The notes under the pieces: model-generated
The model's database searches: none
The model's input: only the letters and a program-made list of their open reading frames with translations
What the model was told of the DNA's origin: nothing
Translations under genes and position numbers: made by a program
Assembly: GCA_963775315.1 (NCBI GenBank)
Contig: CAVZIN010000003.1
Location: 72,011-136,010 of the forward strand
DNA from: an uncultured Alphaproteobacteria bacterium
GTDB lineage: Bacteria > Pseudomonadota > Alphaproteobacteria > MPNO01 > DASWLB01
Direction of reading: 5' to 3'
DNA length: 64,000 bases
Shown here: positions 1 to 62,863 of the stretch, one piece after another
Position numbering within the stretch: position 1 is the first letter of the stretch
Layout: the number at the start of each line of letters is the position of its first letter

Positions 1-197
1 CGTTCGCGCGCTCGAGCATGACGGGCCTTGCGCGACGGCCGAGCATGGCCCCCGGGCCGGACGTACGGACCGAGTCTCCGCCGGCCGAATGAGGGGCGCG
101 CCTGCGTTTCGGCGCGTTCGGCGCCGGCAGTCGTGCGGCGATCAGATGATTGCGGCGCCAGCGATGAAGCGTCTCGGTTGTCCTGCGGCACCAACCG

Positions 198-1121
198 CTA
201 TTCCAAGGCGCTCACCATCAGCGGTGAACTGCGCCCGGTACGAATCATGTCGAGGAAGGCGCGCAGTGCCGCCGGAGGTTGCCGACGTCCCGAATGGTAA
301 AGAAACAGACCTTCGAACGTGGGCGACCAGTCCTCGAGCACCTGGACCAGTTGACCCGAGCGAAGGAAAGGTTCGGCCAACGCCTCAATCGTATAGGCGA
401 TCCCGAGGCCGTCGACGGCGGCGCGCACGCCCAAGTCAGGATTGTTGACGGTGATCCGCCCATCGACCAGGGTTTGTCGCGACACGCCGTCCCGTTGGAG
501 CGGCCATTCGGCAATTTGACCGTCAGCATCCCGCCGGTAGCGTACACAATTGTGCTTGGAAAGGTCATCGGGGCTGCGCGGCGGTCGCCGGCGTGCGAAG
601 TACGACGGCGATCCGACCACCGCGATCCTCACCGGACCCATGACGCGCACTGCGATCATATCGGCATCGACCCGGTTCTGCGGTCCCACCCCGGCATCGA
701 AACCTTTTGCCACGATGTCGATCGGCGCTTCACCGATTTGGACCTCGAGGTGCACATCGGGATAGCTTGAGAGAAATTTATCCCAAATCGGCGCGATCAC
801 GGCCGATGCGGCCACGTGAGTGGCGTAAAGCCGCAAACGCCCGAACGGACGCTCGCGCTCCTGGTTCAGCCCCTCCAGCGCATCAGTGATCTCCGCCAAC
901 GCTGGCCGCAGGCGCTCTACAAGGCGCAGCCCTGCAACGGTAAGGGCGACGCTGCGCGTCGTACGGTGCAGCAGCCGCATCCCGAGACGCTCTTCGATCT
1001 GCCGCATCGCGTGGCTGATCGCGGAGGGGGTAACGCCCAGCCGCGCCGCCGCCGCGCGGAAGCTCAGGTGGTCCGCGACCACCACGAATGTTGCGAGATC
1101 GGCCAGTTCCCCACGCGACAT
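198..1121 (-). CDS. LysR-family transcriptional regulator
   Basis: N-terminal HTH 'MSRGELADLATFVVVADHLSFRAAAARLGVTPSAISHAMRQIEERLG' followed by a LysR substrate-binding domain. The ATG at 1121 (revcomp of cat 1119-1121) fits a LysR N-terminus. The track ORF runs to 1412, but that upstream part is Arg/Pro-rich junk. Confidence 0.85.
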   Translation of the reverse strand: MSRGELADLATFVVVADHLSFRAAAARLGVTPSAISHAMRQIEERLGMRLLHRTTRSVALTVAGLRLVERLRPALAEITDALEGLNQERERPFGRLRLYATHVAASAVIAPIWDKFLSSYPDVHLEVQIGEAPIDIVAKGFDAGVGPQNRVDADMIAVRVMGPVRIAVVGSPSYFARRRPPRSPDDLSKHNCVRYRRDADGQIAEWPLQRDGVSRQTLVDGRITVNNPDLGVRAAVDGLGIAYTIEALAEPFLRSGQLVQVLEDWSPTFEGLFLYHSGRRQPPAALRAFLDMIRTGRSSPLMVSALE

Positions 1122-1123
1122 TG

Positions 1124-1137
1124 ATGAATGTCCTTCA
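1124..1137. promoter_or_regulatory. Candidate LysR T-N11-A box (TGAATGTCCTTCA, TGAA-N5-TTCA dyad) abutting the LysR start codon, in the LysR/efflux divergent region
   Basis: Dyad read directly in the sequence. LysR regulators classically autoregulate through T-N11-A sites in the divergent promoter. Confidence 0.3.
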
Positions 1138-1585
1138 TCATCGTGAGCAACAGATAATGGATTTTCGTTGATTGTACCAAGCGCTATTTTGCCACAGAGA
1201 GAATCAGCCATGGCCTCCCATGTTGGCGGACGAGGAAAGGGTTGGATCGACTTCCATTCCGGCCGAGGCCGTCGGGCGTGAATCCGCCGGTCAGGTTTGA
1301 TGTCCGGCGGCCAAGGCCTTTGGGGGTCGGTCCCCGTTGGCGCCTGACAGCGGCCAGAGGGCGCAATGGCGACGCGCGCGAATGAACTCGGTCGCAGACG
1401 CGGCGGCCTCACCTAGGCGATGACGGTGCGTAACAAGGCACCCACGCCGGAATTTCGAGATCGGCCGCGAGCGACGCGTTCTGTCGGGCGGCATGGGTTA
1501 CTCCTTGTCATCTGTCGCGGAGGGCTCGTACCTGAGTGACAATGTGAACGTTGGTGGTTTTCACCTTCCCGGCATCGGCCCGCTG

Positions 1586-2719
1586 ATGACCTTGGCCTTC
1601 GCGGCGGCGCTCGTTGCAGGCGGTCCCCGGTTGGCCGAGGCCGCGGATGCTCCTCCGCCCGGCGTCGTGGTGGCGCCCGTCGTGGTGAAGGACGTCGCAC
1701 CGGCCACGCACTATATCGGCCATGTGCTCGCGATTCAGTCGGTGAAGCTCGTGCCACGGGTCACCGCGTATATCGACGAGGTCGCCGTGAAGCAGGGCAG
1801 CGCGGTGAAAGCCGGTCAGGTTCTGTTCCGGCTGCAGAGTACCTCCTACGAGGCAGCGCTCCAGAGCGCACAGGCCAGCTTGCAATCCGCTCGGGCGGCC
1901 TACCAGAACGCGCAGCTGGCCTACCAGCGGGCTCTGCGGCTCGGTAAAACCGGGGCGGCCGCGCAAGCGACCGTCGATCAAGCCCTGGCGACGCGAAATC
2001 AGGACCAGGCCGCGATCCTGTCGGCCCAGGCCGATGTCACCCAGGCCCAGCTGAACCTCAGCTACTGCACCATCACCGCGCCCATTGCCGGCCGTATCGG
2101 AACCGCGACCCTCACCAGGGGCAATCTCGTCACGCCGAACACCGCGGCGCTGACAACCATCAACCAGCTCGATCCGATCCGCGTGGTATTCTCGGTCAGC
2201 GACGCCGATATCGTGGATGCCGAGCAGAAGAGCGTAGAAGCGCAGAATGGCGATCTGCAAGGGTTGAAGGCGAGCCTCACGCTGCCGAACGGCAAACCCT
2301 ACGACCAAGCCGGCAGCATCGCCTTCTTCGACAACCAGGTCGATACCCAGACCGGCACGGTGAGCGTCTACGCCGACTTTGCCAATCCGCACCATCTTCT
2401 GCTGCCGGGCTCGTACGTATCGGTGCAATTGCGCAGGGCCAAGCCCCAACTGGTGCCGCTTGTCCCGGTGGCTGCGGTGCAGACGGACCAGCACGGTTCG
2501 TTCGTTCTGACGGTGGGTCGCGACAACAAGGTCAAGCAGCAGCCGGTGAAGCTCGGTCACCAGATCGCCCAGAACGACGTCGTGGAGAGCGGCCTGCGCG
2601 ACGGCGACCGCGTCATCGTCGACGGGCTTCAGAAGGTCAAGCCAGGCGAGGTGGTCAAGCCGACGACCGCGCCCTCCACGGCGGCCGCTGCCGGCCCACC
2701 GCCCGTCCAGGTCGACTGA
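1586..2719 (+). CDS. RND efflux membrane fusion protein (periplasmic adaptor, AcrA/MexA/MdtA family)
   Basis: Signal-peptide-like start 'MTLAFAAALVAGGPRLAEA', coiled-coil Q/A-rich hairpin segment, then lipoyl/beta-barrel motifs ('YCTITAPIAGRIG', 'GSYVSVQL'). The track ORF starts at an upstream ATG at 1493, which is an alternative start. Confidence 0.85.
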   Translation: MTLAFAAALVAGGPRLAEAADAPPPGVVVAPVVVKDVAPATHYIGHVLAIQSVKLVPRVTAYIDEVAVKQGSAVKAGQVLFRLQSTSYEAALQSAQASLQSARAAYQNAQLAYQRALRLGKTGAAAQATVDQALATRNQDQAAILSAQADVTQAQLNLSYCTITAPIAGRIGTATLTRGNLVTPNTAALTTINQLDPIRVVFSVSDADIVDAEQKSVEAQNGDLQGLKASLTLPNGKPYDQAGSIAFFDNQVDTQTGTVSVYADFANPHHLLLPGSYVSVQLRRAKPQLVPLVPVAAVQTDQHGSFVLTVGRDNKVKQQPVKLGHQIAQNDVVESGLRDGDRVIVDGLQKVKPGEVVKPTTAPSTAAAAGPPPVQVD

Positions 2720-2781
2720 GGCCTTTTCGTCTTGCTCTCCAGCTTTTCATCAATCGGCCCAAGTTCGCCATCGTCATCGCG

Positions 2782-5700
2782 GTGGTGATCACGCTGGCCG
2801 GGCTGCTCGCGCTCAATTCCATCCCGATTTCGCAATATCCGAACGTCACGCCGCCGAAGGTGACGATCCTGGTCAACTATCCGGGCGCCAGCGCCCAGAC
2901 GATGATCAACGAGATCGCCGAGCCCATCGAGGAGCAGGTCAACGGCGTCCCCAACATGCTGTACATGCAGAGCACCAGCTCGGGGACGGGGCATTATAAT
3001 CTGTCGGTGACTTTCGCCCTGGGCTCCGATCCCAATATCGACCAGGTCAACGTTCAGAACCGGGTTCAGGAGGCCGTAGCGCAGCTTCCGTCCGAAGTGC
3101 AGCAGGAGGGCATCGCGGTTCGCGCCGCGGCGGATACCTTCGTGCTGGCGGTGAACCTCTATTCGCCTGACAAGAAATACGACCAGCTCTTCATCTCGAA
3201 CTATGCCTACATGCATCTGCAGCAGCAGATCGCCCGCGTGGCGGGTGTCGGCGACACGCATATTTTCGGCGCGCGCGAGTACGCCATGCGGGTCTGGCTC
3301 AACCCCGCCAAGATGACTGCCCTCGGCGTGACCGTCGGCGACGTGACTTCGGCCATCCAGGCGCAGAACATCCAGGTGGCGTCCGGTCAGATCGGCGAGC
3401 CGCCGGTCAGCGGGAACCAGGCCCAGCAGCTCTCCGTGCTCGCCCCTGGAGAGTTGAGCGACCCCAAGCAGTTCAGTGACATCATTATCCGCACCAACAC
3501 CAATGGCGGGGTTCTTCGGCTCGGCGACGTCGCCAAGGTCGAGCTCGCGGCCCAGCAATACGCCAACTCTTCGGCACTGGACGGCCTGCCCTCGTCGACG
3601 GTGGTCATCTATCAGGCGCCGGGCGCCAACGCTCTTGCGGTTTCCGATAGCGTTGCGCGGCAGATGAAGGTGCTGTCGGCGCACTTCCCGCCCGGCTTGA
3701 AGTACCAGATCGTGTACAACGCCACGAACTTCGTGCGCGCCGACATCGCCGAGATCATGCGCACGCTCGTCATCACGCTTTTGCTGGTGGTCGCCGTCGT
3801 CTACGTCTTCCTGCAGGACTGGCGCGCGACGCTGATTCCGACCATCGCCATCCCCGTTTCGCTGATCGGCGTGTTCGCGGCCCTCTACGTGCTCGGCTAC
3901 TCTGCGAATACGATCGATCTTTTCGCCGTCGTCCTCGCTATCACGCTGGTCGTCGACGATGCCATCGTAGTGGTCGAGAACGTCTCCCGGCATCTGGAGG
4001 AAAACCCGGATGTGGACAGGCGGGAGGCTACCGGCGCGGCGATGCGCGAGATCACCGGCCCGGTTGTAGCGACCACCCTGATCCTCGTGGCGGTGTTCGC
4101 GCCGGTCGGTTTCATCGCCGGCATAACGGGCTCGCTATACCGGCAGTTCGCCGTCACCATCTCGGTGTCGGTGGTGATCTCCGCGATCAACGCACTGACT
4201 CTGAGCCCGGCGCTATGCGCCCTGATGCTGCGGCCGCCCTCGGGCCGCCGGATGCGCCTGTTCCGCTGGTTCAACGGGGGCTTCGAATTCACGCGTAACC
4301 GCTACACGAAAGTCGTCGGGGTCCTGTCACGAAGGCTTATCGTCACCACGATCGGCATGATGGCGGTGTTCGGCGCCACCTACTTCGTTTTCGAAGGGAC
4401 GCCAACGGCCTTCCTGCCGGCAGAGGACCAAGGATTCTTCATGCTCAACGTCCAGCTTCCCGACGGTGCGTCGCTGGGGCGGACGAGCAGCGTGGTGGAC
4501 CGGGTCGCCTCCATGCTGCGCAAGCAGCCGAGCATCGCGCACACCCTGGAAATCACGGGCTTCAGCGTTGTCTCCGGATCCCAGGAGTCGAATGGCGCCC
4601 TCGTCATCGCCATCATGAAGCCGTGGGACGAGCGGGGCGCCGACGAGTCCGTGCCCGCCGTGATACGCGCAATGAAACCGAAGCTGGACGCCATCCCCTC
4701 CGCCGATATCGTGGGGTTCAATCCGCCGGCCATTCCTGGCATCAGCACGACCGGCGGGATCAATTTCGTGTTGGAGGCGCAAAGCGGTCAGGCCTACAGC
4801 AAGCTTGCCTCGGTGGCGCGCAGCCTGATCTTTGCGGCGAACCAGAACGACGATTTGTCCTCCGTGTTCACCGCCTTTTCGGCCAACCAGCCGCAAGTGA
4901 TGGTCCACGTCAACAAGCTGAAGGCAGAGATGCTGGGCGTCAGCCCGCAGACGATCTACGAGACGCTGCAAGCCAACCTCGGCGACCAGTTCGTTAACAA
5001 TTTCAACTATCAGAATTTCGTGTTCCAGGTTCTCGTGCAGGCACAGTCGCAGTTCAGGTCCAAGGTGAGCGACATCGAAAGGCTCTATGTGCGCAGCTCC
5101 AACGGATCGATGGTGCCGCTGAAAGGGCTGATCAATGTCAGCATGATCCAGGGTGCCAACGCCCTGACGCTTTACAACTTGTTCCCGGCCGTGCTGATCA
5201 ACGGCGCCGCCGCCCAGGGCCGCAGCGACGGCCAGGCCATCAACGCGATGGAGCAGGTGGCGGCGAAACACCTGCCGCAAGGCTATGGCTACGAGTGGAC
5301 CGGCATGACCTATCAGCAAATCCAGGCCACAGGCCAGGAAGGGGCTGCCTTCCTCGCCGCAGTGGTATTTTCGTATCTCTTCCTCGCCGCCCTCTACGAA
5401 AGCTGGACCCTGCCGCTGTCGGTCATCCTGCCTGTGGCGTTCGCGATGTTCGGCGGCCTGGTGGCCCTGTACCTGCGTGGGATGGCGCTCGACATCTATG
5501 GACAGGTCGGCCTGGTCCTGCTGATCGGCCTTGCCGCGAAAAATGCCATCCTGATCGTCGAGTTCGCCAAGGACCGCCTCGAGCGGGGCGGCGTGGACGC
5601 CGTCGAGGCCGCCGAGGACGGCGCCCACACCCGTTATCGCCCCGTAATGATGACGGCGCTGGCCTTCATCATTGGCGTTGTGCCTCTCGTCATCGCCACA

Positions 5701-5886
5701 GGGGCGGGTGCCGGCGCGCGACAGTCGATCGGCACCACGGTGTTCGGCGGCATGATCATCGCAAGCTTCATCGGCGTGCTGTTCATCCCGGCGCTGTTCG
5801 TCGGGTTTCGGCACCTGTCAGAGGCCTCCTCGCGCCTGCTGGGCCGCCTTGGGGGACATCGCCACGGGCCGGATGCCGCCGAATAG
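2782..5886 (+). CDS. RND multidrug efflux permease (HAE1 family, AcrB/MexB/MdtC-like)
   Basis: 1034-aa 12-TM RND protein. The conserved N-terminal motif continues in frame upstream of the first canonical start ('...QLFINRPKFAIVIAVVITLAGLLALNSIPISQYPNV' is encoded from ~2740). The coordinates here use the first GTG, so the true start is probably upstream and non-canonical, or the sequence has an error (see findings). Confidence 0.9.
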   Translation: MVITLAGLLALNSIPISQYPNVTPPKVTILVNYPGASAQTMINEIAEPIEEQVNGVPNMLYMQSTSSGTGHYNLSVTFALGSDPNIDQVNVQNRVQEAVAQLPSEVQQEGIAVRAAADTFVLAVNLYSPDKKYDQLFISNYAYMHLQQQIARVAGVGDTHIFGAREYAMRVWLNPAKMTALGVTVGDVTSAIQAQNIQVASGQIGEPPVSGNQAQQLSVLAPGELSDPKQFSDIIIRTNTNGGVLRLGDVAKVELAAQQYANSSALDGLPSSTVVIYQAPGANALAVSDSVARQMKVLSAHFPPGLKYQIVYNATNFVRADIAEIMRTLVITLLLVVAVVYVFLQDWRATLIPTIAIPVSLIGVFAALYVLGYSANTIDLFAVVLAITLVVDDAIVVVENVSRHLEENPDVDRREATGAAMREITGPVVATTLILVAVFAPVGFIAGITGSLYRQFAVTISVSVVISAINALTLSPALCALMLRPPSGRRMRLFRWFNGGFEFTRNRYTKVVGVLSRRLIVTTIGMMAVFGATYFVFEGTPTAFLPAEDQGFFMLNVQLPDGASLGRTSSVVDRVASMLRKQPSIAHTLEITGFSVVSGSQESNGALVIAIMKPWDERGADESVPAVIRAMKPKLDAIPSADIVGFNPPAIPGISTTGGINFVLEAQSGQAYSKLASVARSLIFAANQNDDLSSVFTAFSANQPQVMVHVNKLKAEMLGVSPQTIYETLQANLGDQFVNNFNYQNFVFQVLVQAQSQFRSKVSDIERLYVRSSNGSMVPLKGLINVSMIQGANALTLYNLFPAVLINGAAAQGRSDGQAINAMEQVAAKHLPQGYGYEWTGMTYQQIQATGQEGAAFLAAVVFSYLFLAALYESWTLPLSVILPVAFAMFGGLVALYLRGMALDIYGQVGLVLLIGLAAKNAILIVEFAKDRLERGGVDAVEAAEDGAHTRYRPVMMTALAFIIGVVPLVIATGAGAGARQSIGTTVFGGMIIASFIGVLFIPALFVGFRHLSEASSRLLGRLGGHRHGPDAAE

Positions 5887-6361
5887 TCCGCGTTGAGCGC
5901 TGGGGGGCCGACGGACACCGGAACTGCCGTCGTTGAGCCATAGTTAGCGAAATGCGGGGGCATGATCGCGGGAGAGGGTGCGTGGCGTTCGGGTCGGGGC
6001 GCGCCCCGAAGCGGAAGTGCCCATGCGCGTCGGTCTCGCCGCTGAAGCCGTCACCGGGACCAAGGCATGAACGCCACGGCGGTGTTCTTCCGCGCGCTGG
6101 CCCGGTCGGAGGAAGCGAGCCAGCCGGCCGCGCTTGCCGCCACGTGGCGGAACTCGGGCGAAGTGGCGACGCCAGCGGCGCTTGTCTGCATCGAGCAGAT
6201 CGAACACGCACTCGATCGTCTAAGCGCGGAACCGTGAGGCGCCGCTTTCGTCGCCGGACCGGTGACGATCACCTTGACCATGGCAACCCGACCATTCTTC
6301 CAGGGGGTCAGTGGCCCGCCGTGCCGGCGCCACGCCCCTTGGCCGCCTTCCTGCCCGATCT

Positions 6362-6399
6362 CGATTAAAGAAATGGTGCGGCTGTGCGCTTGCGCACAG
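6362..6399 (-). terminator. Candidate rho-independent terminator on the minus strand (8-bp GC stem CTGTGCGC/GCGCACAG followed by AUUUCUUUAAU) downstream of the ATP-grasp gene
   Basis: Perfect palindrome at 6382-6399 with a U-rich tract at 6362-6372 on the minus strand. On the plus strand it is not followed by a T-tract. Confidence 0.35.
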
Positions 6400-6452
6400 A
6401 GGGCGGCGCGTCTTCGCGCCATGATCGGGTGTTTCCTCCCTTAAGCGAACTC

Positions 6453-6527
6453 GCGGTGCGGACTCCTTGGGGCCGCACCGCTTCTTTTTGCCGCGATGGC
6501 GCCCGGTCGATGTCACCCGATGTGGCT
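6453..6527 (-). repeat. Conserved intergenic element, copy 1 (hairpin CGGTGCGG-loop-CCGCACCG, then ...GCCGCGATGGCGCCCGGTCGATGTCACCCGATG)
   Basis: About 85% identical over ~70 nt to 9588..9657, in the same orientation. It contains an 8-bp stem whose loop carries AAGGAG. Confidence 0.6.
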
Positions 6528-6634
6528 TCTCGCGCAACGGGCAATCGAGTTCCGCCTATCCACTCGGCGGCGAAGCCATCCTCAAAGCTGTCCGAAAAAT
6601 ACCTTTTTCGGCAGTCTGGAGCTTCTCGCGCTCC

Positions 6635-7897
6635 TCAGTTGGTCGCTCGGCCGACAACCCGGTGTTGAACATGGCGTTGCAGCATGTTCCCGAACGCGCG
6701 AAAGATCGTGTCCATGTGTTGCCGCTTGTAAGGGAAGATCTCCGGCGGATCCAGATCGTGGACAACCATGGCGTTTCCGGCCTCGAAGACGAGAAGCCGG
6801 CCGTCTGGCATTTCGGCGCAGTCGACCGCGAAGTAGTCCAGGCGAACGCGTTCGGCAATGGCGTCGATGGCGGCTTTGTGCCGGACGGCGAAGCCGAGAT
6901 CGAACTCGGCCATGAACTTCGCCTCTTCCGCCCGTCGCTCGGCGCGAGTGAGCATCCCGGCATTGACGTAGTGGATCATCCAATCTGACGAAATCGCCAT
7001 GTGACACGGATAGGCTTGTCCATCGATAAACACGATCCGGAATTTCCGGAACAACCCATCTCGGCTTCGGTAATCGATGAACGGCGATATATAAAATTCG
7101 TCTTCAGACCTTTGCGTCAGGAAGGCAGCCACTTCCGCCGCGTCTTCGATTTTCGAGAGGCCTTCCCCGGCGTGCGAATCTCTGGGGCGCCCAATGAGGG
7201 GAAATGCGGCCCCGTCGAGGATCGAGCCAGGCAAGATTTCCCCGCGAGCGATCCGTGACAGCGTCGCGCGTCCGATACTCGCCGTCGGCGGGATCGTTAC
7301 GCCGGGCGCCTTTGCGAGCAGTACGGACACGGCGTCCCGGGTCAATCCGACGATGCGGTTTGGTGCATTGAGGACCGGGCGCTCCCAGCCCGCCAGTCTC
7401 GGCGTCAGCGCCCGCAGGACCCGTTCGTTGTTCTTGGATTCGGCGATCGTGACGAAGGCGAGGTCATGGTCCGGAAGGCGCGGCGGAAGCGGCGCGTCCT
7501 CCGTCACGTAGGCGATATGGAGCGACACGTCGAGATCGTCGAGCAGGAGCTCCAAGGGCGTGTTCGCCATGAAACTGCCAGGTACCATGAATGCCAGGAG
7601 TCGGAGGCCTTGGCGCTCGGCAGTCCGTGAGGGATGGCGGTATACGCGGCTGAGCTTCAGTGCCTCCCGCTGCAAATCGGCGCGGAGCGAGCCCTTGTCG
7701 CAAATCTGTGCGATCGTCGAGAGATCGATAAGGCAAGCCCCATCGGCCGGGTTCCGATCCCGCTGCTCGGCCAGCGACTTCCATACCGGCACCAGATCGG
7801 CTCCCGCATATGCCATTCCGAGGAGGGCCGAAAATCCGTAGGACAGCGCCGGAAAGGCGTCGGTGGACCGGTTCGGGAAAACGCTCCGCTTACTCAT
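6635..7897 (-). CDS. ATP-grasp domain protein (RimK / glutathione-synthetase-like ligase)
   Basis: C-terminal ATP-grasp signature 'FIDYRSRDGLFRKFRIVFIDGQAYPCHMAISSDWMIHYVNAG...LLVFEAGNAMVVHD'. It sits 12 nt downstream of the decarboxylase stop with an AAGG SD, so the two are co-transcribed. Confidence 0.75.
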   Translation of the reverse strand: MSKRSVFPNRSTDAFPALSYGFSALLGMAYAGADLVPVWKSLAEQRDRNPADGACLIDLSTIAQICDKGSLRADLQREALKLSRVYRHPSRTAERQGLRLLAFMVPGSFMANTPLELLLDDLDVSLHIAYVTEDAPLPPRLPDHDLAFVTIAESKNNERVLRALTPRLAGWERPVLNAPNRIVGLTRDAVSVLLAKAPGVTIPPTASIGRATLSRIARGEILPGSILDGAAFPLIGRPRDSHAGEGLSKIEDAAEVAAFLTQRSEDEFYISPFIDYRSRDGLFRKFRIVFIDGQAYPCHMAISSDWMIHYVNAGMLTRAERRAEEAKFMAEFDLGFAVRHKAAIDAIAERVRLDYFAVDCAEMPDGRLLVFEAGNAMVVHDLDPPEIFPYKRQHMDTIFRAFGNMLQRHVQHRVVGRATN

Positions 7898-7909
7898 GCT
7901 TCTGCCTTG

Positions 7910-9373
7910 CTACGCTACTTTTCTGGGCGCCCGCGCCCGGCCGAGCGCCACCACGCGATCGACCAGCATGTCGACGTCGCGCTGGTCGGTGCGATGGTTG
8001 ACGATCGCCGCGCGGATTGCGAGGGATGCGCCGATCCGCGTCGTCGACGGGGCACAAAGTCCCAATTCCTGGAGTTCAACTACGATTTCCGAATTGACCC
8101 GGTCGGGATCGAGTGCGCGGTATCGGAAGCACACGATGTTGAGCTGGACGGGAGCAAGCAGCTCGAGCTCGGGGGTGGCAACGATCCGGCTTTCGAGATG
8201 GCGCGCCAGGGCGCACGTCCGCGACATCGCGGCGCCCAGCGCTTCGGTCCCGTAGACCTTGAGCGTGAACCATGTCTTCAGCGCGCGGAAGCCGCGGGAA
8301 AGGTCGGGTCCCAGGTCGCACGGCCAGGGCGATCCGGCAGCGAGCCCTCGGCACTCGCGTTGCAAATAGCTGGCCGGTGAAGCGAAGGCTTTTTGGTGCA
8401 GCTCGCCGTCGCGCACCAATATGAAGCCCGCGTCGTATGGCACCTGTGCCCATTTGTGGAAATCGAGCGCGATCGAGTCGGCACGCTGGATGCCGTCGAG
8501 CCTCGGCGCAAGGTCAGGGGCCATTATCGCGACGGCGCCAATCGCACCGTCGACGTGGAACCACAGCTTGTTGCGTTCGGCAATCGTCGCCAATGCCGAG
8601 AGATCGTCGAACGCACCGATATCGACGGTTCCTGCCGTCCCGACGATCAGGAAGGGAGTGAAGCCTTCCTTGCGGTCGCGATCGATTGCAGCCGACAGCG
8701 CGTCGATGTCGATCTGGTGATGATCATTGATCGGAATGACGCGAAGGGCGGCCGTGCCGAAGCCGGAAGCGTCCATGGCCTGCGCGATGCATCCATGCGC
8801 CGCAGCGGAAGTGTAAGCGACCAGCCGCGTGGCGCGGGAGGCGAGCCCGTCCTGCCGCACTTCCGCTCCCAACTCCCTGGTGCGGGCGATCAAGACGCCG
8901 ATCAGGTTCGCCATCGACGAGCCGGTGACGAATATGCCGCTTGCTGCGCTCGGGAACGCAAAGAGCTGGCTCAGCCAGCGGACCACCGAACGCTCCACCT
9001 CGATCGGGATGTGGTCGCGCCCTCCGAGATTCGCGTTGAGGCCGGCGGCCAGCATTTCGGCCAGCATGCCAACGACGTTGCCGCCGCCATGCACCCAGCC
9101 CATGAACCCCGGATGGGAATTGCCCGTGGCGTAGGGAAGGACATAGCGCATGAACTCGTGATGCACCTCCGCCAGGTCGGTCGGATGAACCGGCACCGGC
9201 TCATGGAAGTGCGCGCGAACGTTCTCCGGGATCGGCTGCCAGACGGGACGGTCCCGGAGATGCTCGACGTAATCGAGGATGTCGTCGAGCATGCGATGCC
9301 CCTGTGACCGGAGCTGCGCCCAATCGGACGGATCGAGGCCGACGGCGGGGTGGGGCGGCGAGTGATTTTTCAT
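7910..9373 (-). CDS. Pyridoxal-phosphate-dependent group II amino-acid decarboxylase (DDC/GAD/CSAD family)
   Basis: 'SIALDFHKWAQVPYDAGF' PLP-lysine motif (xHKW) and overall group-II decarboxylase layout. ATG at 9373 ('MKNHSPP'). The track uses a TTG at 9394 ('MADTGYGM'), an alternative start. Confidence 0.85.
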   Translation of the reverse strand: MKNHSPPHPAVGLDPSDWAQLRSQGHRMLDDILDYVEHLRDRPVWQPIPENVRAHFHEPVPVHPTDLAEVHHEFMRYVLPYATGNSHPGFMGWVHGGGNVVGMLAEMLAAGLNANLGGRDHIPIEVERSVVRWLSQLFAFPSAASGIFVTGSSMANLIGVLIARTRELGAEVRQDGLASRATRLVAYTSAAAHGCIAQAMDASGFGTAALRVIPINDHHQIDIDALSAAIDRDRKEGFTPFLIVGTAGTVDIGAFDDLSALATIAERNKLWFHVDGAIGAVAIMAPDLAPRLDGIQRADSIALDFHKWAQVPYDAGFILVRDGELHQKAFASPASYLQRECRGLAAGSPWPCDLGPDLSRGFRALKTWFTLKVYGTEALGAAMSRTCALARHLESRIVATPELELLAPVQLNIVCFRYRALDPDRVNSEIVVELQELGLCAPSTTRIGASLAIRAAIVNHRTDQRDVDMLVDRVVALGRARAPRKVA

Positions 9374-54534: not shown

Positions 54535-54643
54535 GGGGCGTGCGGCGCTTTCATTAGCCTTCCACGTCCTGAGTTTGTCGAAGGATGAGGCTGGCGAAGG
54601 ATGAGGCCATTCCGGCGGCATAGCCGCTCGTGCCGCCGCCGCC

Positions 54644-54700
54644 TCCCGATTGTCATCCCGGCCAAGCCGCAAAGCGGCGCGAGCCGGGAGCTATCCATCC
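54644..54700 (+). repeat. REP-like element copy D (TTGTCATCCCGGCCAAGCCGCAAAGCGGCGCGAGCCGGGAGCTATCCATCC)
   Basis: Shares the TGTCATCCCGG...CCGGGA.C.ATCCATC termini with copies A and B. Confidence 0.5.
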
Positions 54701-55110
54701 ACGCCTCGGACGCCGCGACATGGGCCCCGGCTCGGCGCGCTCCGCTCGCCGTCCGGGGTGACAAGCGGACATTGGGCGCCAGCCGACCCACGCACTGCTT
54801 TGGCCTGCATCCATCGAGAGTGCAGCCGCCGCAAGACGCGCGGGACCATGCTTACGATGCACTAAAAACAGCGACGCGTTAAATGTTGAGATGATGGAGA
54901 ACGCTCTTTTCCAAATCAGAGATATCTGATTTCGTCTTTTGAATTATCGAATTTATGCAAGACCCGCAGTATAGGGGTCGAGCGGTAAACCCGCTTTTCA
55001 TTCTCGGAATCTGAAAACACCGTTCACCCGTAATTATCTTCTTATCACAACGGTCGCACGTTGTGGCTCGTCCGCAAGTATGAGGAGCAGGAAAACCGGC
55101 AATTATCCGG

Positions 55111-55139
55111 TTGACGTACCAAGCCCCATCCCCTATATT
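55111..55139 (+). promoter_or_regulatory. Near-consensus sigma-70 promoter (TTGACG-17 nt-TATATT) preceded by dyad AACCGGcaattatCCGGTT
   Basis: Read directly; it lies inside a low-GC (~45-50%) segment. Confidence 0.4.
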
Positions 55140-55165
55140 CCCTTCAAGACGAAGGGAACACGGTT

Positions 55166-55411
55166 ATGGCCAAGCTTGATCTGACAAACCCGATCTTCCA
55201 CGACGACGCCAATGGGCCGCCTATCGTTGCCTCTTCCGACAAGACGCCCCGCTTTCTCCAAAAGCACTTTTGTCAATTCGTCACATCAAGAGACTCGAAT
55301 AGGCCTTCCTTAATAGTAAGATTTGGGGCGACAATGAGCACACGACCGTGCGCTATTCCAAATGGCGCGATGGCTGCGAGACCAGATTTTCCGCATCCCA
55401 CAGGGATCTGA
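55166..55411 (+). CDS. Small ORF of unknown function (81 aa) driven by the consensus promoter, antisense to the helicase fragment
   Basis: GAAGGGAA lies 7 nt upstream of the ATG. No homology recognised, so this could be non-coding. Confidence 0.25.
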   Translation: MAKLDLTNPIFHDDANGPPIVASSDKTPRFLQKHFCQFVTSRDSNRPSLIVRFGATMSTRPCAIPNGAMAARPDFPHPTGI

Positions 55412-55704
55412 ACGATGGCAGCATGATTTCCCTTCTTAAAGAACTCGTATAATGCTTGATATGCCTCAATCTGCGGCTCCCGCAATTGGAGGTTTTCCTC
55501 GATGTGCGCAGGTGTCTTTATAAAAAAATTTTCGATAGGAATATTGGAACGGACCCATGCATCAAGGTCCTTCTTGCTGAACAGCCATTTGCTGCCGACC
55601 TTGTTGGAGGGGATGCTGCCGTCCCGCGCCAAATCGTACAGGGCGGTTTTGCCCATCTGGAGGTATTTCGCCGTCTCTTCGATCGACATCCACTCTTCGG
55701 ACAT
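55273..55704 (-). pseudogene. Truncated remnant: excisionase-type HTH fused to the N-terminal fragment of a ResIII/DEAD-like helicase (Walker A 'PVGCGKSG'), in a low-GC island
   Basis: 'MSIEETAKYLQMGKTALYDLARDGSIPSNKVGSKWLF' (excisionase/MerR-like HTH), then 'QIEAYQALYEFFKKGNHAAIVQIPVGCGKSGLAAIAPF'. The ORF stops after ~100 helicase residues and has no continuation in any frame. Confidence 0.6.
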
Positions 55705-55869
55705 GGCCCGCTCTCCCGTTTATCAAATTCTATCATCTGACATCATATGATGCAAGCAGCCGTCCGCCCAGTTGGCCTCGACCCGAAGAACCTGTCGTCT
55801 CGAGTTGGCCACCGGCACCCCCCACCCCGCATTGACGCCCCCGCCTTATGCCCCTAACATCCCCTGGCG

Positions 55870-56005
55870 TTCCTTGGGGTGCCCCGGCAGGGGGCTGAGA
55901 GTCCACCGGGTTCGCTCGCGCGGCGGCCGTTGGCGGCCAAGCGCGGGTCGGGCGGCGTGGAGACCCTTCGAACCTGATCCGGGTCGTACCGGCGTAGGGA
56001 CAGGA
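55870..56005 (+). promoter_or_regulatory. TPP (THI-box) riboswitch in the thiC 5' leader
   Basis: 'GGGGUGCCC...GCUGAGA...ACCCUUCGAACCUGAUCCGGGUCGUACCGGCGUAGGGA' contains the conserved THI-element blocks. Confidence 0.85.
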
Positions 56006-56143
56006 ACATCGGGGGCTTTCCCCCTCGCGTTCCGCAATCTCTCCCCTTCCGCCGGCCCGTCCGGGTCGCACCGCTCCGCGCGGGTCGCGGCGCCGCCCCC
56101 TGGCGCCGCCTGCGTCCCGCCTCCGCCGTATCCGCGTCCCTAA

Positions 56144-58006
<1,863 letters not shown>

Positions 58007-60199: not shown

Positions 60200-62863
60200 G
60201 TGTTGGCTGCAACGGTGACCCTGCCCGAGATCGTTTCCCGATTCGGCGCATCGGCGAAAGCCAAATTGTCGAACAAGGCGGTCAGCGGGGCTCCCGAGGA
60301 TCAGCTTCGGGCCCCGATGGAGGAACTCATCGCCGGCTTCGCCGTGCTCGCCGGCCAGCCGGCGGGCGCCGTCGTGGCGGTGGGAGAATCCTCCTTGTCC
60401 GATATCAAGACGCGCCCCGACTACGCCATCACCCTGCACAACGCCTTGATCGGATTCATCGAGCTCAAGGCGCCAGGGAAAGGCGCGGACCCGCGGAAAT
60501 TTCATGACCCGCACGACCGGGAGCAATGGGACAAGCTCAAGTCGCTGCCGAACCTGATCTACACGGACGGGAACGCCTTCAGCCTCTGGCGAGACGGCAA
60601 GCTGGAAGGATCGATCCTACGATTCGAGGGCGATATCGAAACAGCCGGAGCCTCGCTCGCGGCAACATCGGCGTTGACCGCGCTATTCGGAACGTTCTTC
60701 CAATGGCAACCCATCCCTCCCCGAAACGCCCCGCAATTGGCGGAGGTCAGCGCGCGCCTCTGCCGATTGTTGCGGGACGAGGTATCGGAGCAACTGGCGC
60801 TTGGAAGCAAATCCCTCACCAGCCTGGCGCAAGACTGGCGAAAACTCCTGTTTCCGCAGGCTTCCGATGCGGTGTTCGCCGATGGCTACGCGCAGGCGGT
60901 AACGTTCGGCTTGCTGATGGCACGAGCGCAGGGAATTTCGCTCGCCGAGGGGCTGGACCATGTCGCGCGCGACCTGCAAAAGACGAACTCGCTCATCGGC
61001 ACCGCCCTCAAAGTTCTCACCGATCAAGCGGAGAACCAGGCGACGTTGAAGACCTCGCTGGCCACGCTTACGCGTGTCTTGGATGTGGTGGATTGGGCGA
61101 AGGTGAGCAAGGGCGACCCGGAGGCTTGGCTCTATTTTTACGAGCGCTTCCTGAGCGTCTATGACAACGACCTCCGCAAGAAGACGGGCTCGTACTACAC
61201 GCCACCCGAAATCGTCAACGCCATGGTCCGTATGGTGGACGACCTGCTTCGCGACCCCAACCGCTTCGGGCTGACGGGCGGACTGGCTTCTCCTGACGTT
61301 ACGCTCGCCGATCCCGCGATGGGGACAAGGGTCTTTCAAGGGGTGCAGCAGCCGGTTTGCATCGTGATCGCGTCTCGCATGGCCGACACGGACCCTGAAA
61401 CTCCGGCGCGGGTTCGGTTTCACTCGCTTCCGAACGGTCGGCGCGAGGAAAAGTTCGAGGCGATTTCCAAGCTGTCGGTGGGCGGTGCGGCCTGGACGGA
61501 CTGCCCCGCCGAATGGCGCGCTCCCTTCCTGCCGGCGCCGGTAGGTGCGTGGGCGTCCTTCCCCAGCCTGGAGGATTTGTTCGTCTATGACGGGTCGGGC
61601 GTCATGCCGGGCCGGACCTGGGTGATCGCACCTGACGCAGCGTCCCTGCGCGACCGATGGGATCGATTGGTGCACGAGAGGGATCCCGAGGTGAAGGAGA
61701 ACTTGTTCCATCCACACATTGTTGGCGGGCAACCGGCGGATAAGCATTCACGGAAGGCTGCTAAATCCGGCCTGTCCGGACACGAATACCGGGCACCTTC
61801 CGTTGCGAACGATCGAGGCCCAATCGTAAATCCCACGAGGTATGGCTTCCGTTCGTTTGACCGACAATGGGTAATTCCAGACAATAGGCTGCTTAACCGA
61901 TCTAATCCAACACTGTGGAAAGAATACTCAGGTTCGCAGATTTATCTGACCGCGCCGCATGACAGGTCAGCGACAGCTGGTGCAGCATTGACATTCACCG
62001 AGCTCATTCCAGATTTGCACCATTACAACGGGAGGGGCGGCCGCGTGTTCCCTCTGTGGTTCGATGGCAAGGCCACGGTTTCCAATATCAAACCGGCGCT
62101 GCGGCAGGTCCTATCGGATCGATTGGCGAATCCCGTTTCCGGCGAGGATGTCTTCGCGTACGTCGCCGCAATTGCGGCCCATCCCGGTTATGTGGCGCGG
62201 TTCAAATCCGATCTGGTTCAGCCGGGCCTTCGGATTCCGATCACTTCGGACCCGAAGCTGTTCCACGAAGCGGTCCGGCTTGGGCGACAAATCGTATGGC
62301 TTCACACGTTCGGCGAGCGGTTCGTCTCCGCCGAAGAAGGTCGGCCGCCGGGCCCGCCTCGCCTGCCGGAAGGCAAAGCTCCGCGAATACCCGCAGCAGG
62401 CGCGATTCCATCGGCACCGGACAAGATGCCGAACTCGATTTCCTATGACGAGAACAAGCGGCGTCTGTTCGTCGGCGACGGCTACATCGACAATGTGGCG
62501 CCGGGCGAATGGACCTATGAGGTCTCCGGAAAGCAGGTGCTGGTACAATGGTTCAGCTACCGCCGCCGCGACCGCGAGCGGCCGATCATCGGTGATCGGC
62601 GACAGCCGTCGCCCTTGAACGACATTCAGCCGGACCACTGGGTCGCGGAATACACCACCGAGTTGATGAACGTCCTGAACGTGCTCGGTCGATTGGTGGA
62701 GCTCGAGCCGGCGCTGGCGGACCTGCTCGACCGGATTTGCAAAGGGCCGCTCCTGTCCGCCGACAGCCTTCGGGCCGAAGGCGCCTTCGACGTTCCGGCG
62801 GATTTCGGAAGCCAACTTTTGTCCAAATCGACGGACGAGCGTCAAGGCGAGCTTCTGGAATAG
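60200..62863 (+). CDS. MmeI/type-ISP-like restriction-modification family protein: PD-(D/E)xK nuclease-like N-terminus, N6-MTase motifs X/I (GSYYTPPEIV, DPAMGT) but no NPPY motif, type-ISP-like C-terminal specificity domain
   Basis: 'RPDYAITLHNALIGFIELKAP' (D...ExK), 'YERFLSVYDNDLRKKTGSYYTPPEIVNAMV', 'LADPAMGT', and a C-terminal 'NPTRYGFRSFDRQWVIPDN...'. The GC content is visibly lower than the surrounding sequence. Confidence 0.65.
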   Translation: MLAATVTLPEIVSRFGASAKAKLSNKAVSGAPEDQLRAPMEELIAGFAVLAGQPAGAVVAVGESSLSDIKTRPDYAITLHNALIGFIELKAPGKGADPRKFHDPHDREQWDKLKSLPNLIYTDGNAFSLWRDGKLEGSILRFEGDIETAGASLAATSALTALFGTFFQWQPIPPRNAPQLAEVSARLCRLLRDEVSEQLALGSKSLTSLAQDWRKLLFPQASDAVFADGYAQAVTFGLLMARAQGISLAEGLDHVARDLQKTNSLIGTALKVLTDQAENQATLKTSLATLTRVLDVVDWAKVSKGDPEAWLYFYERFLSVYDNDLRKKTGSYYTPPEIVNAMVRMVDDLLRDPNRFGLTGGLASPDVTLADPAMGTRVFQGVQQPVCIVIASRMADTDPETPARVRFHSLPNGRREEKFEAISKLSVGGAAWTDCPAEWRAPFLPAPVGAWASFPSLEDLFVYDGSGVMPGRTWVIAPDAASLRDRWDRLVHERDPEVKENLFHPHIVGGQPADKHSRKAAKSGLSGHEYRAPSVANDRGPIVNPTRYGFRSFDRQWVIPDNRLLNRSNPTLWKEYSGSQIYLTAPHDRSATAGAALTFTELIPDLHHYNGRGGRVFPLWFDGKATVSNIKPALRQVLSDRLANPVSGEDVFAYVAAIAAHPGYVARFKSDLVQPGLRIPITSDPKLFHEAVRLGRQIVWLHTFGERFVSAEEGRPPGPPRLPEGKAPRIPAAGAIPSAPDKMPNSISYDENKRRLFVGDGYIDNVAPGEWTYEVSGKQVLVQWFSYRRRDRERPIIGDRRQPSPLNDIQPDHWVAEYTTELMNVLNVLGRLVELEPALADLLDRICKGPLLSADSLRAEGAFDVPADFGSQLLSKSTDERQGELLE

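Follow-up and report, generated by a model that had tools for sequence, protein, structure and literature searches.

The window analyzed here is a 64,000-nt stretch of DNA from an uncultured Alphaproteobacteria bacterium, and it contains a short islet of low G+C content (Table 1). Windowed G+C is 0.489 at 54880-55760 (49% over 54879-55756), compared to 0.689 for the whole window. This is the minimum among all 880-nt windows, ~4.9 SD under the mean. The edges are sharp, with a G+C of 0.70 in the left flank and 0.69 in the right flank. This quantitative check agrees with the original prediction of a low-GC island at ~54880-55760. The islet is composed of three collinear pieces, termed A, B, and C, and every piece has a G+C of 0.44-0.52 against 0.69-0.70 in both flanks.

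The islet lies just upstream of a TPP riboswitch, as had been predicted. The riboswitch (55865-56018, plus strand; Rfam RF00059, 57.1 bits, E 1.4e-9) precedes thiC (56159-58006) and is separated from the islet edge by ~110 nt. A promoter-like TTGACG-17-TAACAT sequence is found near it, at 55832-55860. The predicted lack of an adjacent tRNA also holds, and no tRNA is found within the 64 kb window. No integrase ORF is present inside or beside the islet, and no direct or inverted repeats of note flank it. Having no integrase, no tRNA or attachment site, and no flanking direct repeats, the islet is not a classical integrative genomic island. A weak Rfam 'M23' match at 54607-54686 (E 0.39) was treated as chance.

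Table 1. Features of the low-GC islet, in window coordinates
Feature	Position	Strand	Content
Whole low-GC islet	54845-55756		Cassette wreck plus ~34 nt of trailing sequence (54845-54878, 50% GC)
Piece A	54879-55097	minus	Last 71 codons and TAA stop (54879-54881) of a small 4-Cys zinc-finger gene
Dyad AACCGG-N7-CCGGTT	55094-55112		Straddles the A/B junction
Piece B	55098-55207	plus	Stump from the left end of an IS1595-family element, with promoter, hairpin in the 5' UTR, and transposase codons 1-14
TTGACG-17-TATATT promoter (predicted)	55111-55139	plus	Sigma-70 match, 10/12
6-bp hairpin CCCUUC/GAAGGG	55140-55156	plus	3' arm holds Shine-Dalgarno-like GAAGGGA
81-aa chimeric ORF	55166-55411	plus	14 transposase codons plus antisense helicase sequence
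Piece C, whole	55205-55756	minus	Native promoter/operator and first 167 helicase codons
Piece C, coding part	55205-55704	minus	Codons 1-167 of an HTH_17-SF2 helicase (~670 aa when whole)
Native cassette promoter/operator (predicted)	55705-55756	minus	Recognized by conservation among relatives

Piece C encodes the beginning of a helicase. Its 143-aa ORF (55273-55704, minus strand) has Pfam matches to HTH_17 (E 1e-14) and to the N-terminal region of ResIII (E 2e-7) and possesses the Walker A motif PVGCGKSG, which bears out the prediction of an excisionase-type HTH fused to a helicase start. The gene had also been predicted to end abruptly at 55273 by deletion. Instead, the ORF ends there in an in-frame TGA at codon 144 (55273-55275), where Arg is found in at least 90% of relatives, and the homology runs 23 codons past this stop to ~55205, the true break, which marks an internal deletion. 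Helicase residues 1-172 align to 55704-55189 by tblastn (E 5e-89). By blastn, the fragment is 71-76% identical to 13 relatives, and the alignment ends at 55204-55208 in 12 of these and at 55196 in one (L008). Relative to the helicase start codon, 55756 to 55205 corresponds to -51 to +497. Over the first 167 codons, identity to the closest relatives is 75-84%. All 32 columns that are invariant in 74 relatives are kept, as are 33 of 35 columns with conservation of at least 90%; the two that differ are the stop and one residue downstream of it. The N-terminal HTH_17 followed by ResIII motif I (PVGCGKS) is present, but motifs II-VI and the C-terminal ~230 residues are missing, so that the fragment has neither the full SF2 core (DEAH motif II plus Helicase_C) nor the 662-681 aa length of the family. 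The window helicase is a pseudogene fragment and not a functional family member.

Piece A is a second gene remnant that was missed by the original prediction. Residues 17-87 of the small protein, from three related loci used as queries (L007, L013, and L017), align to 55097-54885 with E-values of 1e-22 to 8e-26 in the window (tblastn). Three database homologues of 86-98 aa match the piece at E 1e-19 to 1e-21, and the blastn matches span 55085-54930. The 71 C-terminal residues are 50-59% identical to relatives, all conserved Cys are kept, and the gene order and strand agree. In the window copy, the small gene has lost its start, its ~16 initial codons, and its overlap with the helicase gene.

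Both remnants belong to a widespread cassette. Relatives were found in 332 species representatives, also on plasmids, and 80 loci were fetched. The intact cassette is ~2.3 kb and is composed of a promoter of its own (TTGCAT-17-TAnnAT, with three ATGATA-type repeats lying across it), a helicase gene (HTH_17, ResIII, and Helicase_C) whose product is uniformly 662-681 aa in length, and an ~85-aa 4-Cys gene whose start codon falls within the last ~8 helicase codons. One intact copy occupies 6790-9100 of NZ_CP115781.1. The only genes conserved across the 80 loci are the helicase gene (76 loci) and the small gene, which overlaps the helicase stop in 74 of the 80. No third conserved gene was found in these loci, and the immediate neighbors are heterogeneous. 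The cassette moves horizontally. Its distribution spans at least six phyla, and it has reached conjugative plasmids, on which it is found beside traG, ArdC-like, and exonuclease genes. In the two annotated plasmid records that were examined, the gene tables do not list the small gene. The G+C of the cassette tracks that of the host in 74 relatives (r 0.87, on average 3 points lower), whereas the window copy is 20 points lower. Truncated copies are rare among the species representatives: one helicase of 171 aa (L064) and one of 480 aa (L065) have different end points. Short database matches (85-248 aa) were considered as evidence of recurrent truncation, and this was rejected, the fetched loci being frameshifted long-read assemblies or an IS21 insertion and the species representatives being nearly all full length.

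The window copy retains the cassette promoter. TTGCAT (55756-55751) is followed after 17 nt by TAGAAT (55733-55728), three ATGATA-like repeats recur at a distance of 10-11 nt, and a ribosome-binding site (GGGAGAG) is present, so the TTGCAT-17-TAnnAT arrangement with its ATGATA repeats is that of the family. Among 16 relatives, upstream conservation starts exactly at TTGCAT, with the consensus TTGCATCATATGACATCATATGATAnnATTTGATAA, and blastn similarity to relatives extends to 55755/55756.

Piece B has no significant similarity to the cassette in a shuffle test. Its N-terminal residues, MAKLDLTNPIFHD, compare with M(N/D)(L/I)DLTNPIFHDE in IS1595 transposases, with 10 of 11 residues identical (E 0.024 in the whole window). 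The related transposases (L178, L179, and L183) are composed of the Pfam domains Zn_ribbon_IS1595 and DDE_Tnp_IS1595. The DNA alignment with the related IS reveals a common GGCAAyTAT...TTGAC motif, in which GGCAAyTAT lies 13 nt upstream of the -35 element, and similar coding DNA (27/32 identical, counted on the alignment). The IS promoters are TTGACA-17-GATATT in L178 and TTGACA-17-CATATT in L179, and the distance from -35 to the start codon is 52-55 nt in the stump and in both elements. The stump hairpin folds at -10.8 kcal/mol (z -2.3). A 6-bp hairpin of different sequence is found at the equivalent place in L179 and a longer interrupted stem in L178, both weak (z -1.4 to -1.6). Thus the stump has both the N-terminal peptide and the promoter/5' UTR architecture of this IS1595 subgroup. 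The zinc-ribbon and DDE domains of the transposase were not found in the window by tblastn, and the 14 surviving codons end upstream of the start of the zinc ribbon. No convincing terminal repeats were found in L179 or L183, the right end is absent from the window, and no target-site duplication could be delimited. Searches of plasmids with the stump DNA and the short peptide returned no match.

The original prediction had placed a near-perfect promoter, an operator dyad, and an antisense ORF in this segment. The promoter is where it had been placed and is a 10/12 match, and two promoter-like sites occur in the region, compared to 0.9 +/- 0.9 in shuffles. Because piece B comes from the left end of an IS1595-family element, the promoter is most likely that of the IS transposase and not part of the helicase element. 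The dyad is present as described, but 25% of shuffles also place a 6-nt dyad over the promoter region, and the dyad is absent from the L178 and L179 promoters. We judge it to be fortuitous. The 81-aa ORF does run antisense into the helicase fragment from the predicted position. However, the IS/helicase junction at ~55205-55207 falls within it, and it has no match in Pfam, PADLOC, or NCBIfam. The ORF is an accidental fusion of transposase and antisense helicase sequence and not a gene family.

According to the original prediction, these three features could be a relic regulatory or antisense module of the lost helicase element. Such a module might be an antisense RNA or a small-protein regulator. 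The strong promoter match, the suitably spaced ribosome-binding site and ATG, and the course of the ORF into the helicase stub all fit such a module. In intact cassettes, however, it is absent. The equivalent position there is the helicase/small-gene overlap, to which 55086-55204 has no similarity, and the promoter, ribosome-binding site, and ATG at 55111-55168 match the starts of IS1595 transposase genes. The dyad is unconserved and expected by chance, and the ORF crosses the deletion junction and therefore cannot predate the deletion. We consider a relic module of this kind very improbable. A further proposal took 55100-55200 as a decayed 3' end of the helicase gene together with the beginning of the small gene, the -35 element lying antisense to 'STG' codons. 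It was rejected on the shuffle test, which gave no significant similarity, and the IS1595 match. The middle 110 nt could be filler or strongly decayed cassette DNA whose likeness to IS1595 is a coincidence. The peptide match is indeed short, with an E-value of 0.024 in the window that becomes 0.81 against 2 Mb of sequence, no terminal repeats are seen, and a forced MAFFT alignment can set the segment against the helicase 3' end. Against this, nine identical residues in a row (DLTNPIFHD) start 4 residues past an ATG that has a ribosome-binding site, as they do in IS1595 proteins, and the coding DNA, the layout and spacing of -35, 17-nt spacer, -10, hairpin, and start, and the GGCAAyTAT motif are all in common. 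Moreover, 110 nt of extreme local decay is implausible because the flanking cassette pieces are pristine. Filler or decay is thus unlikely.

The 143-aa HTH protein could also have been kept for a function, as a domesticated repressor made from the native promoter that, for example, silences incoming copies of the cassette. The native promoter/operator, the ribosome-binding site, and the whole of HTH_17 are intact, and no conserved residue of the protein is lost. Such a product would nevertheless hold half a RecA1 domain, and the few genuinely truncated relatives end at differing places, the short database matches that were checked being the assembly and IS21 cases described above. The pristine state extends past the stop codon and into the promoterless small-gene fragment, and it therefore reflects recency, not selection. 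A retained repressor hardly seems credible.

The reading that we prefer, with a probability of about 0.8, is that the islet represents a defunct two-gene cassette, acquired horizontally, that carries the stump of an IS1595-family element. The truncated HTH::SF2-helicase gene and its low G+C uphold the original prediction of a remnant; its source is a mobile or accessory element acquired by horizontal transfer. An IS1595-family element would have landed at about codon 17 of the small gene, its transposase pointing in the direction of the helicase. One subsequent deletion, spanning transposase codon ~15 through helicase nucleotide ~+497, would have removed the rest of the IS, the small-gene start, and ~1.4-1.5 kb of the helicase gene, leaving the junction at ~55205. 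In a further lesion, a substitution probably turned the conserved Arg codon 144 into TGA. What remains is the cassette promoter with 167 helicase codons, the 110-nt IS stump, and the last 71 codons of the small gene. Neither cassette gene should be able to make its product, and the 81-aa ORF would be a by-product.

The insertion and deletion appear to be recent, because the G+C has not been ameliorated and the remaining coding pieces are, apart from these lesions, pristine. The order of events is deduced from the arrangement of the pieces, as is their place, in this genome or in an earlier host; the equally low G+C of all three pieces hints that the damage came before arrival here. No empty or intact site was found in related genomes, where exact-protein look-ups returned short contigs only. 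A metagenome scan with ThiC gave matches of at most 80% identity and no synteny, and only the riboswitch was matched. At most, the two surviving promoters are predicted to give convergent transcription across the helicase stub, and plus-strand transcripts from the IS promoter could continue toward the thiC leader. The islet amounts to ordinary debris in the genome rather than a functioning regulatory module.

We propose that the islet be annotated as two pseudogene fragments and an IS remnant. It is a short stretch of accessory DNA next to thiC, both gained and wrecked recently, and is of little consequence for this genome. It teaches that a convincing promoter and ORF can be an IS scar fused to antisense sequence. 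It also draws attention to a widespread cassette of two genes, the second of which was overlooked in both plasmid gene tables, and no description of this cassette was found in the literature. An intact copy, for instance that on Paracoccus aerodenitrificans plasmid p2, would make a reasonable candidate for defense or plasmid-establishment screens. Tentatively, and with less than even confidence, we suggest that the wreck may stem from an undescribed conflict or establishment module outside the known defense and anti-defense models. This module would be self-contained and autoregulated, pairing an HTH-SF2 helicase with a PARP-like zinc finger that annotations routinely omit. In a weaker variant of this suggestion, transcription entering the thiC riboswitch may still be influenced by the surviving HTH stub and the IS-derived promoter.

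Searches of the intact cassette against PADLOC, Pfam, and NCBIfam gave generic or partial matches for the helicase and none for the small protein. The best PADLOC-DB v2 matches of the helicase are partial and cover the ATPase core only (mREase_IV, 3e-16; PbeA, 2e-15), and the cassette appears to match no defense model of that database over most of its length. Type III restriction-modification Res, which the original prediction had listed as a possible parent, has the ResIII (PF04851) SF2 ATPase N-terminal domain in common with the window ORF. The cassette differs from it in that the intact relatives are ~670 aa and have no Mod methyltransferase as a conserved neighbor. In PADLOC, REase_III is matched only weakly (E 0.0016-0.0075), Pfam shows no nuclease domain, and this parentage is not supported. 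The first ~50 helicase residues are similar to the HTH of MADS MAD1 (NF047737, PDLC04133), with 59 bits for the window copy and 54 bits for L017, both short of the 80 bits set as the curated cutoff. MAD1 itself is a separate protein of ~50-60 aa, encoded as part of a methylation system of several genes, whereas no MADS partners are conserved beside the cassette.

For the small protein, a full-length homologue was represented by its AlphaFold model (pLDDT 70), which was compared with the PDB by Foldseek. All 26 best matches are PARP-type zinc fingers (zf-PARP; PARP-1 Zn1/Zn2 and DNA ligase III), 25 from PARP-1 and 1 from DNA ligase III, with a TM-score of ~0.47 and an rmsd of ~1.9 Å over 50 residues and with E-values of 0.02 or worse. 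The CxxC...CxxC of the small protein is in register with these fingers, but its ligands are C4 and those of PARP-type fingers are CCHC. Comparison of sequence profiles with PARP1 gave no significant match (hhalign probability 1.6%), and among PDB sequences the best match is a FYVE domain (E 0.02). The modeled fold makes a PARP-like zinc finger a lead only.

The stump shares with the IS1595 family (Zn_ribbon_IS1595, PF12760; DDE_Tnp_IS1595, PF12762) the (L)DLTNPIFHD peptide, the TTGACx-17-xATATT layout, the 5' UTR hairpin, and the -35-to-start spacing of L178, L179, and L183. In contrast to these elements, only ~110 nt is left, with no zinc ribbon, DDE domain, right end, or recognizable terminal repeats, and piece B is therefore a scar and not an element. 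In RefSeq, the cassette helicase is labeled only 'DEAD/DEAH box helicase family protein' (WP_271112150.1, P. aerodenitrificans plasmid p2; WP_154386586.1, Aminobacter pMDW3). The window copy has the same upstream promoter/operator as these RefSeq cassettes and differs from them by its nonsense codon and its IS stump.

The islet at 54845-55756 is genome debris of an ordinary kind, the remains of an accessory cassette that was acquired recently and then wrecked, most likely by insertion of an IS followed by a deletion. The cassette has two genes, an HTH_17-SF2 helicase gene and a small gene for a four-Cys zinc-finger protein. The low-GC island of the original prediction was confirmed in a scan of 880-nt windows, where 54880-55760 has the lowest G+C of all (48.9%, compared with 68.9% for the window; ~4.9 SD under the mean). 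The edges are sharp, and G+C rises to 0.70 in the left flank and 0.69 in the right flank. They are also the edges of the cassette, with the -35 hexamer at one end and, at the other, the small-gene stop, past which lie ~34 nt of trailing sequence (50% GC). In relatives, the cassette averages 3 points lower in G+C than its flanks (r 0.87), and the window copy is 20 points below its host. No tRNA was found within the 64-kb window, in agreement with the earlier remark that none adjoins the islet.

Alignment to relatives by blastn and tblastn gave two collinear blocks, both on the minus strand. The first, 55756 to ~55205, aligns with cassette positions -51 to +497, which comprise the promoter and helicase codons 1-167 (E 5e-89). 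An HTH fused to the start of a ResIII-type helicase carrying PVGCGKSG had been recognized here, and Pfam assigns HTH_17 and ResIII. The proposed truncated helicase is indeed a gene remnant, but its abrupt stop at 55273 is a TGA (55273-55275) standing where at least 90% of relatives have Arg, and homology runs on for 23 more codons, QKCFWRKRGVLSEEATIGGPLA. The fragment retains all 32 columns that are invariant in 74 relatives and 33 of the 35 conserved at ≥90%. The second block, 55097 to 54885, covers residues 17-87 of the small protein (E 1e-22 to 8e-26) and was confirmed with three database homologues (E 1e-19 to 1e-21). All conserved Cys residues are kept, and the stop lies at 54879-54881.

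Features in the window and in related loci
Feature	Coordinates	Strand	Details
Helicase fragment, 143-aa ORF	55273-55704	-	HTH_17, E 1e-14; first 70 positions of ResIII, E 2e-7; PVGCGKSG
Cassette promoter	55705-55756	-	three ATGATA/TGGCA-type repeats 10-11 nt apart; equivalent positions in cassette relatives L007-L030
Perfect palindrome CATCATATGATG	55741-55752		in window copy of cassette promoter
Middle-piece promoter	55111-55139	+	TTGACG, spacer 17, TATATT; 55 nt from -35 to start codon
Promoter of transposase gene L178			TTGACA, spacer 17, GATATT; 54 nt from -35 to start codon
Promoter of transposase gene L179			TTGACA, spacer 17, CATATT; 52 nt from -35 to start codon
Small zinc-finger gene, ~85 aa, in relatives	L187 (plasmid) 8823-9083; L188 (plasmid) ~7000-7270; 74/80 loci L007-L086 at ~+1978		overlaps helicase stop
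DUF4258 gene, 88 aa	53637-53903	+	4-nt overlap with next gene
DUF2283/YuzE-like gene, 66 aa	53900-54100	+
887-aa ORF	60200-62863	+	Type_ISP_C (Type ISP restriction-modification specificity domain), E 7e-73

Between the blocks lie 119 nt (55086-55204), for which 13 comparisons with the helicase/small-gene overlap of relatives revealed no significant similarity. The z-score is ~0 in 12 of these, and the single outlier is an alignment out of register. The plus-strand ORF of this piece starts MAKLDLTNPIFHD, which resembles the N-termini of IS1595-family transposases. This resemblance was tested by scanning viral contigs with a back-translated TNPIFHD pattern, which gave 19 matches. Three of these (L178, L179 and L183) are ORFs of ~300 aa beginning M(N/D)(L/I)DLTNPIFHDE (L179 starts VSVNLTNPIFHDE), each with Zn_ribbon_IS1595 and DDE_Tnp_IS1595 domains. 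Searched against the window, such a transposase matches 55175-55207 with 10/11 identities (E 0.024 for the whole window and 0.81 against 2 Mb of sequence). Over the first codons, 27/32 nt are identical to the transposase genes in a DNA alignment counted by hand, as were the promoter layouts of the window, L178 and L179. The window and L178 have in common a GGCAAyTAT motif 13 nt 5' of the -35. The window has a 6-bp hairpin with the Shine-Dalgarno sequence in its 3' arm (z -2.3); the equivalent place folds into a 6-bp hairpin of other sequence in L179 and into a longer, interrupted stem in L178, both weak (z -1.4 to -1.6). By these sequence features, 55098-55207 is most likely what remains of the left end of an IS1595-family element, in which case the promoter at 55111-55139 would be that of the transposase.

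The original prediction read this region as a relic regulatory or antisense module. Its elements are real: the promoter is the best sigma-70-like site of the region (10/12), and both the ATG ORF at 55166-55411 on the plus strand and the dyad AACCGG-N7-CCGGTT (55094-55112) are present. The module itself is not borne out, as the transposase-start match and the shared promoter layout indicate an IS scar. The 81-aa ORF joins 14 transposase codons to helicase sequence read in antisense. The dyad spans the junction of the small-gene and IS pieces, and is lacking in L178 and L179; in 25% of shuffles an equivalent dyad falls over the promoter region. The observation was thus accurate and its interpretation right in part.

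What is new is only the uncharacterised parent cassette, which is non-functional in the window. A word-indexed protein search with the helicase fragment returned only short matches (85-248 aa); the loci fetched from among these were frameshifted long-read assemblies or IS21-interrupted. In one metagenome contig (L006, 8001-13512), an IS21-type element (rve transposase and IstB) splits the helicase gene, another instance of IS disruption of the cassette. Exhaustive HMMER searching gave one full-length representative cluster (P0058, 680 aa), and a one-genome-per-species scan turned up 332 relatives, from which 80 loci were retrieved. Their helicases are uniform in length (662-681 aa), have HTH_17, ResIII and Helicase_C domains, and are up to 84% identical to the window fragment. 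Among the hosts are Acidobacteriota, Alphaproteobacteria, Gammaproteobacteria, Bdellovibrionota, Vampirovibrionales, Bacteroidota and Patescibacteria. When all ORFs from ~7 kb upstream to 9.5 kb downstream of the helicase start were clustered across the 80 loci, only two genes were conserved, the helicase (76 loci) and an ~85-90-aa gene at ~+1978 (74 loci). PADLOC, Pfam and NCBIfam gave generic or partial matches to the helicase and none to the small protein.

Upstream conservation among relatives begins exactly at the TTGCAT -35 hexamer, and the consensus, TTGCATCATATGACATCATATGATAnnATTTGATAA, has three ATGATA-like repeats, 10-11 nt apart, over a TAnnAT -10. These repeats and the palindrome are plausibly an autoregulatory operator for the cassette's own HTH_17 domain.

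Plasmid copies occur in Paracoccus aerodenitrificans p2 (16.6 kb, MOBQ; 81% identity) and in Rhizobium, Aminobacter and Skermanella (~55% identity). On p2, the cassette adjoins a zincin-like metallopeptidase gene; on Aminobacter pMDW3, it adjoins traG and is accompanied by an exonuclease gene, and a gene for a zincin-like (ArdC-like) metallopeptidase lies farther off. Immediate neighbours vary over the fetched loci and include T4SS coupling proteins, methyltransferases, integrases, PsyrT and AriA/Old-like ATPases. In an Alphaproteobacteria MAG (L001, 4444-6901), a decayed copy lies directly 3' of a Hachiman-like pair (HamA and a ResIII/DEAD helicase), a defence-island context for that copy. 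A search of the phage collection yielded no full-length relative; the matches there are distant helicases covering ~55% of the query at <30% identity. The 5.9-kb plasmids H19-H25 (Salmonella, Klebsiella, Hafnia, Erwinia) carry a distant helicase homologue (~33-35% identity) without the HTH domain.

The simplest path to the islet would have four steps. The cassette would have been acquired, an IS1595-family element would have inserted at ~codon 17 of the small gene, and one deletion would have removed the DNA between transposase codon ~15 and helicase position +497. A nonsense substitution at helicase codon 144 could fall anywhere in this order. Apart from these lesions, the surviving coding pieces are pristine. 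The near-complete residue conservation and the G+C 20 points below the host suggest that the events are recent, and the similarly low G+C of all three pieces (0.44-0.52) suggests that the damage may have happened in a previous host. A genome with an empty or intact site was sought among relatives and was not found.

Nothing in the islet can work as a helicase system. Retention of the 143-aa HTH protein is conceivable, but decay is equally absent past the TGA and in the promoterless small-gene piece, which favours recency over selection. The two surviving predicted promoters may fire convergently across the helicase stub. A simple plus-strand scan from the IS promoter to the leader of thiC, the downstream gene, found no terminator-like site, so read-through toward that leader is possible. 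The thiC riboswitch predicted beside the islet is a TPP riboswitch at 55865-56018. A promoter-like TTGACG-17-TAACAT (55832-55860, plus strand) ends 5 nt before it, ~75 nt from the islet edge, and is probably the native thiC promoter. The DUF4258 and DUF2283/YuzE-like genes, ~0.8 kb from the islet, look like a toxin-antitoxin-type pair. The 887-aa ORF, where G+C falls to 0.60-0.65, may represent another accessory or defence-related gene in the vicinity of thiC; at a 1e-5 cutoff, Pfam gave it no nuclease, helicase or methylase domain. Positions 1-9000 have a G+C of 0.63-0.65, compared with 0.68-0.74 across most of the window.

In relatives, the small gene starts within the final ~8 codons of the helicase gene, shifted to the +1 frame, and the protein has the pattern M.KPKGKTPSL...CxRC...CFxIPK...GF...CxxC...QTKxDL. 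The gene is conserved across phyla, and neither of the two annotated plasmid records inspected (Paracoccus p2 and Aminobacter pMDW3) has it in its gene table; annotation probably misses it systematically. Sequence comparisons of the small protein with PARP fingers were not significant. An AlphaFold model of one full-length homologue (built from four sequences, pLDDT 70) has short beta-hairpins bearing the two CxxC pairs, followed by a long helix at the C terminus. Its best 26 Foldseek matches in the PDB are all zinc fingers of the PARP type; PARP-1 accounts for 25 of them and DNA ligase III for the other (E ≥0.02, TM ~0.47, rmsd ~1.9 Å). This structural likeness is only a lead that the small protein could, as modelled, be a sensor of DNA nicks or ends.
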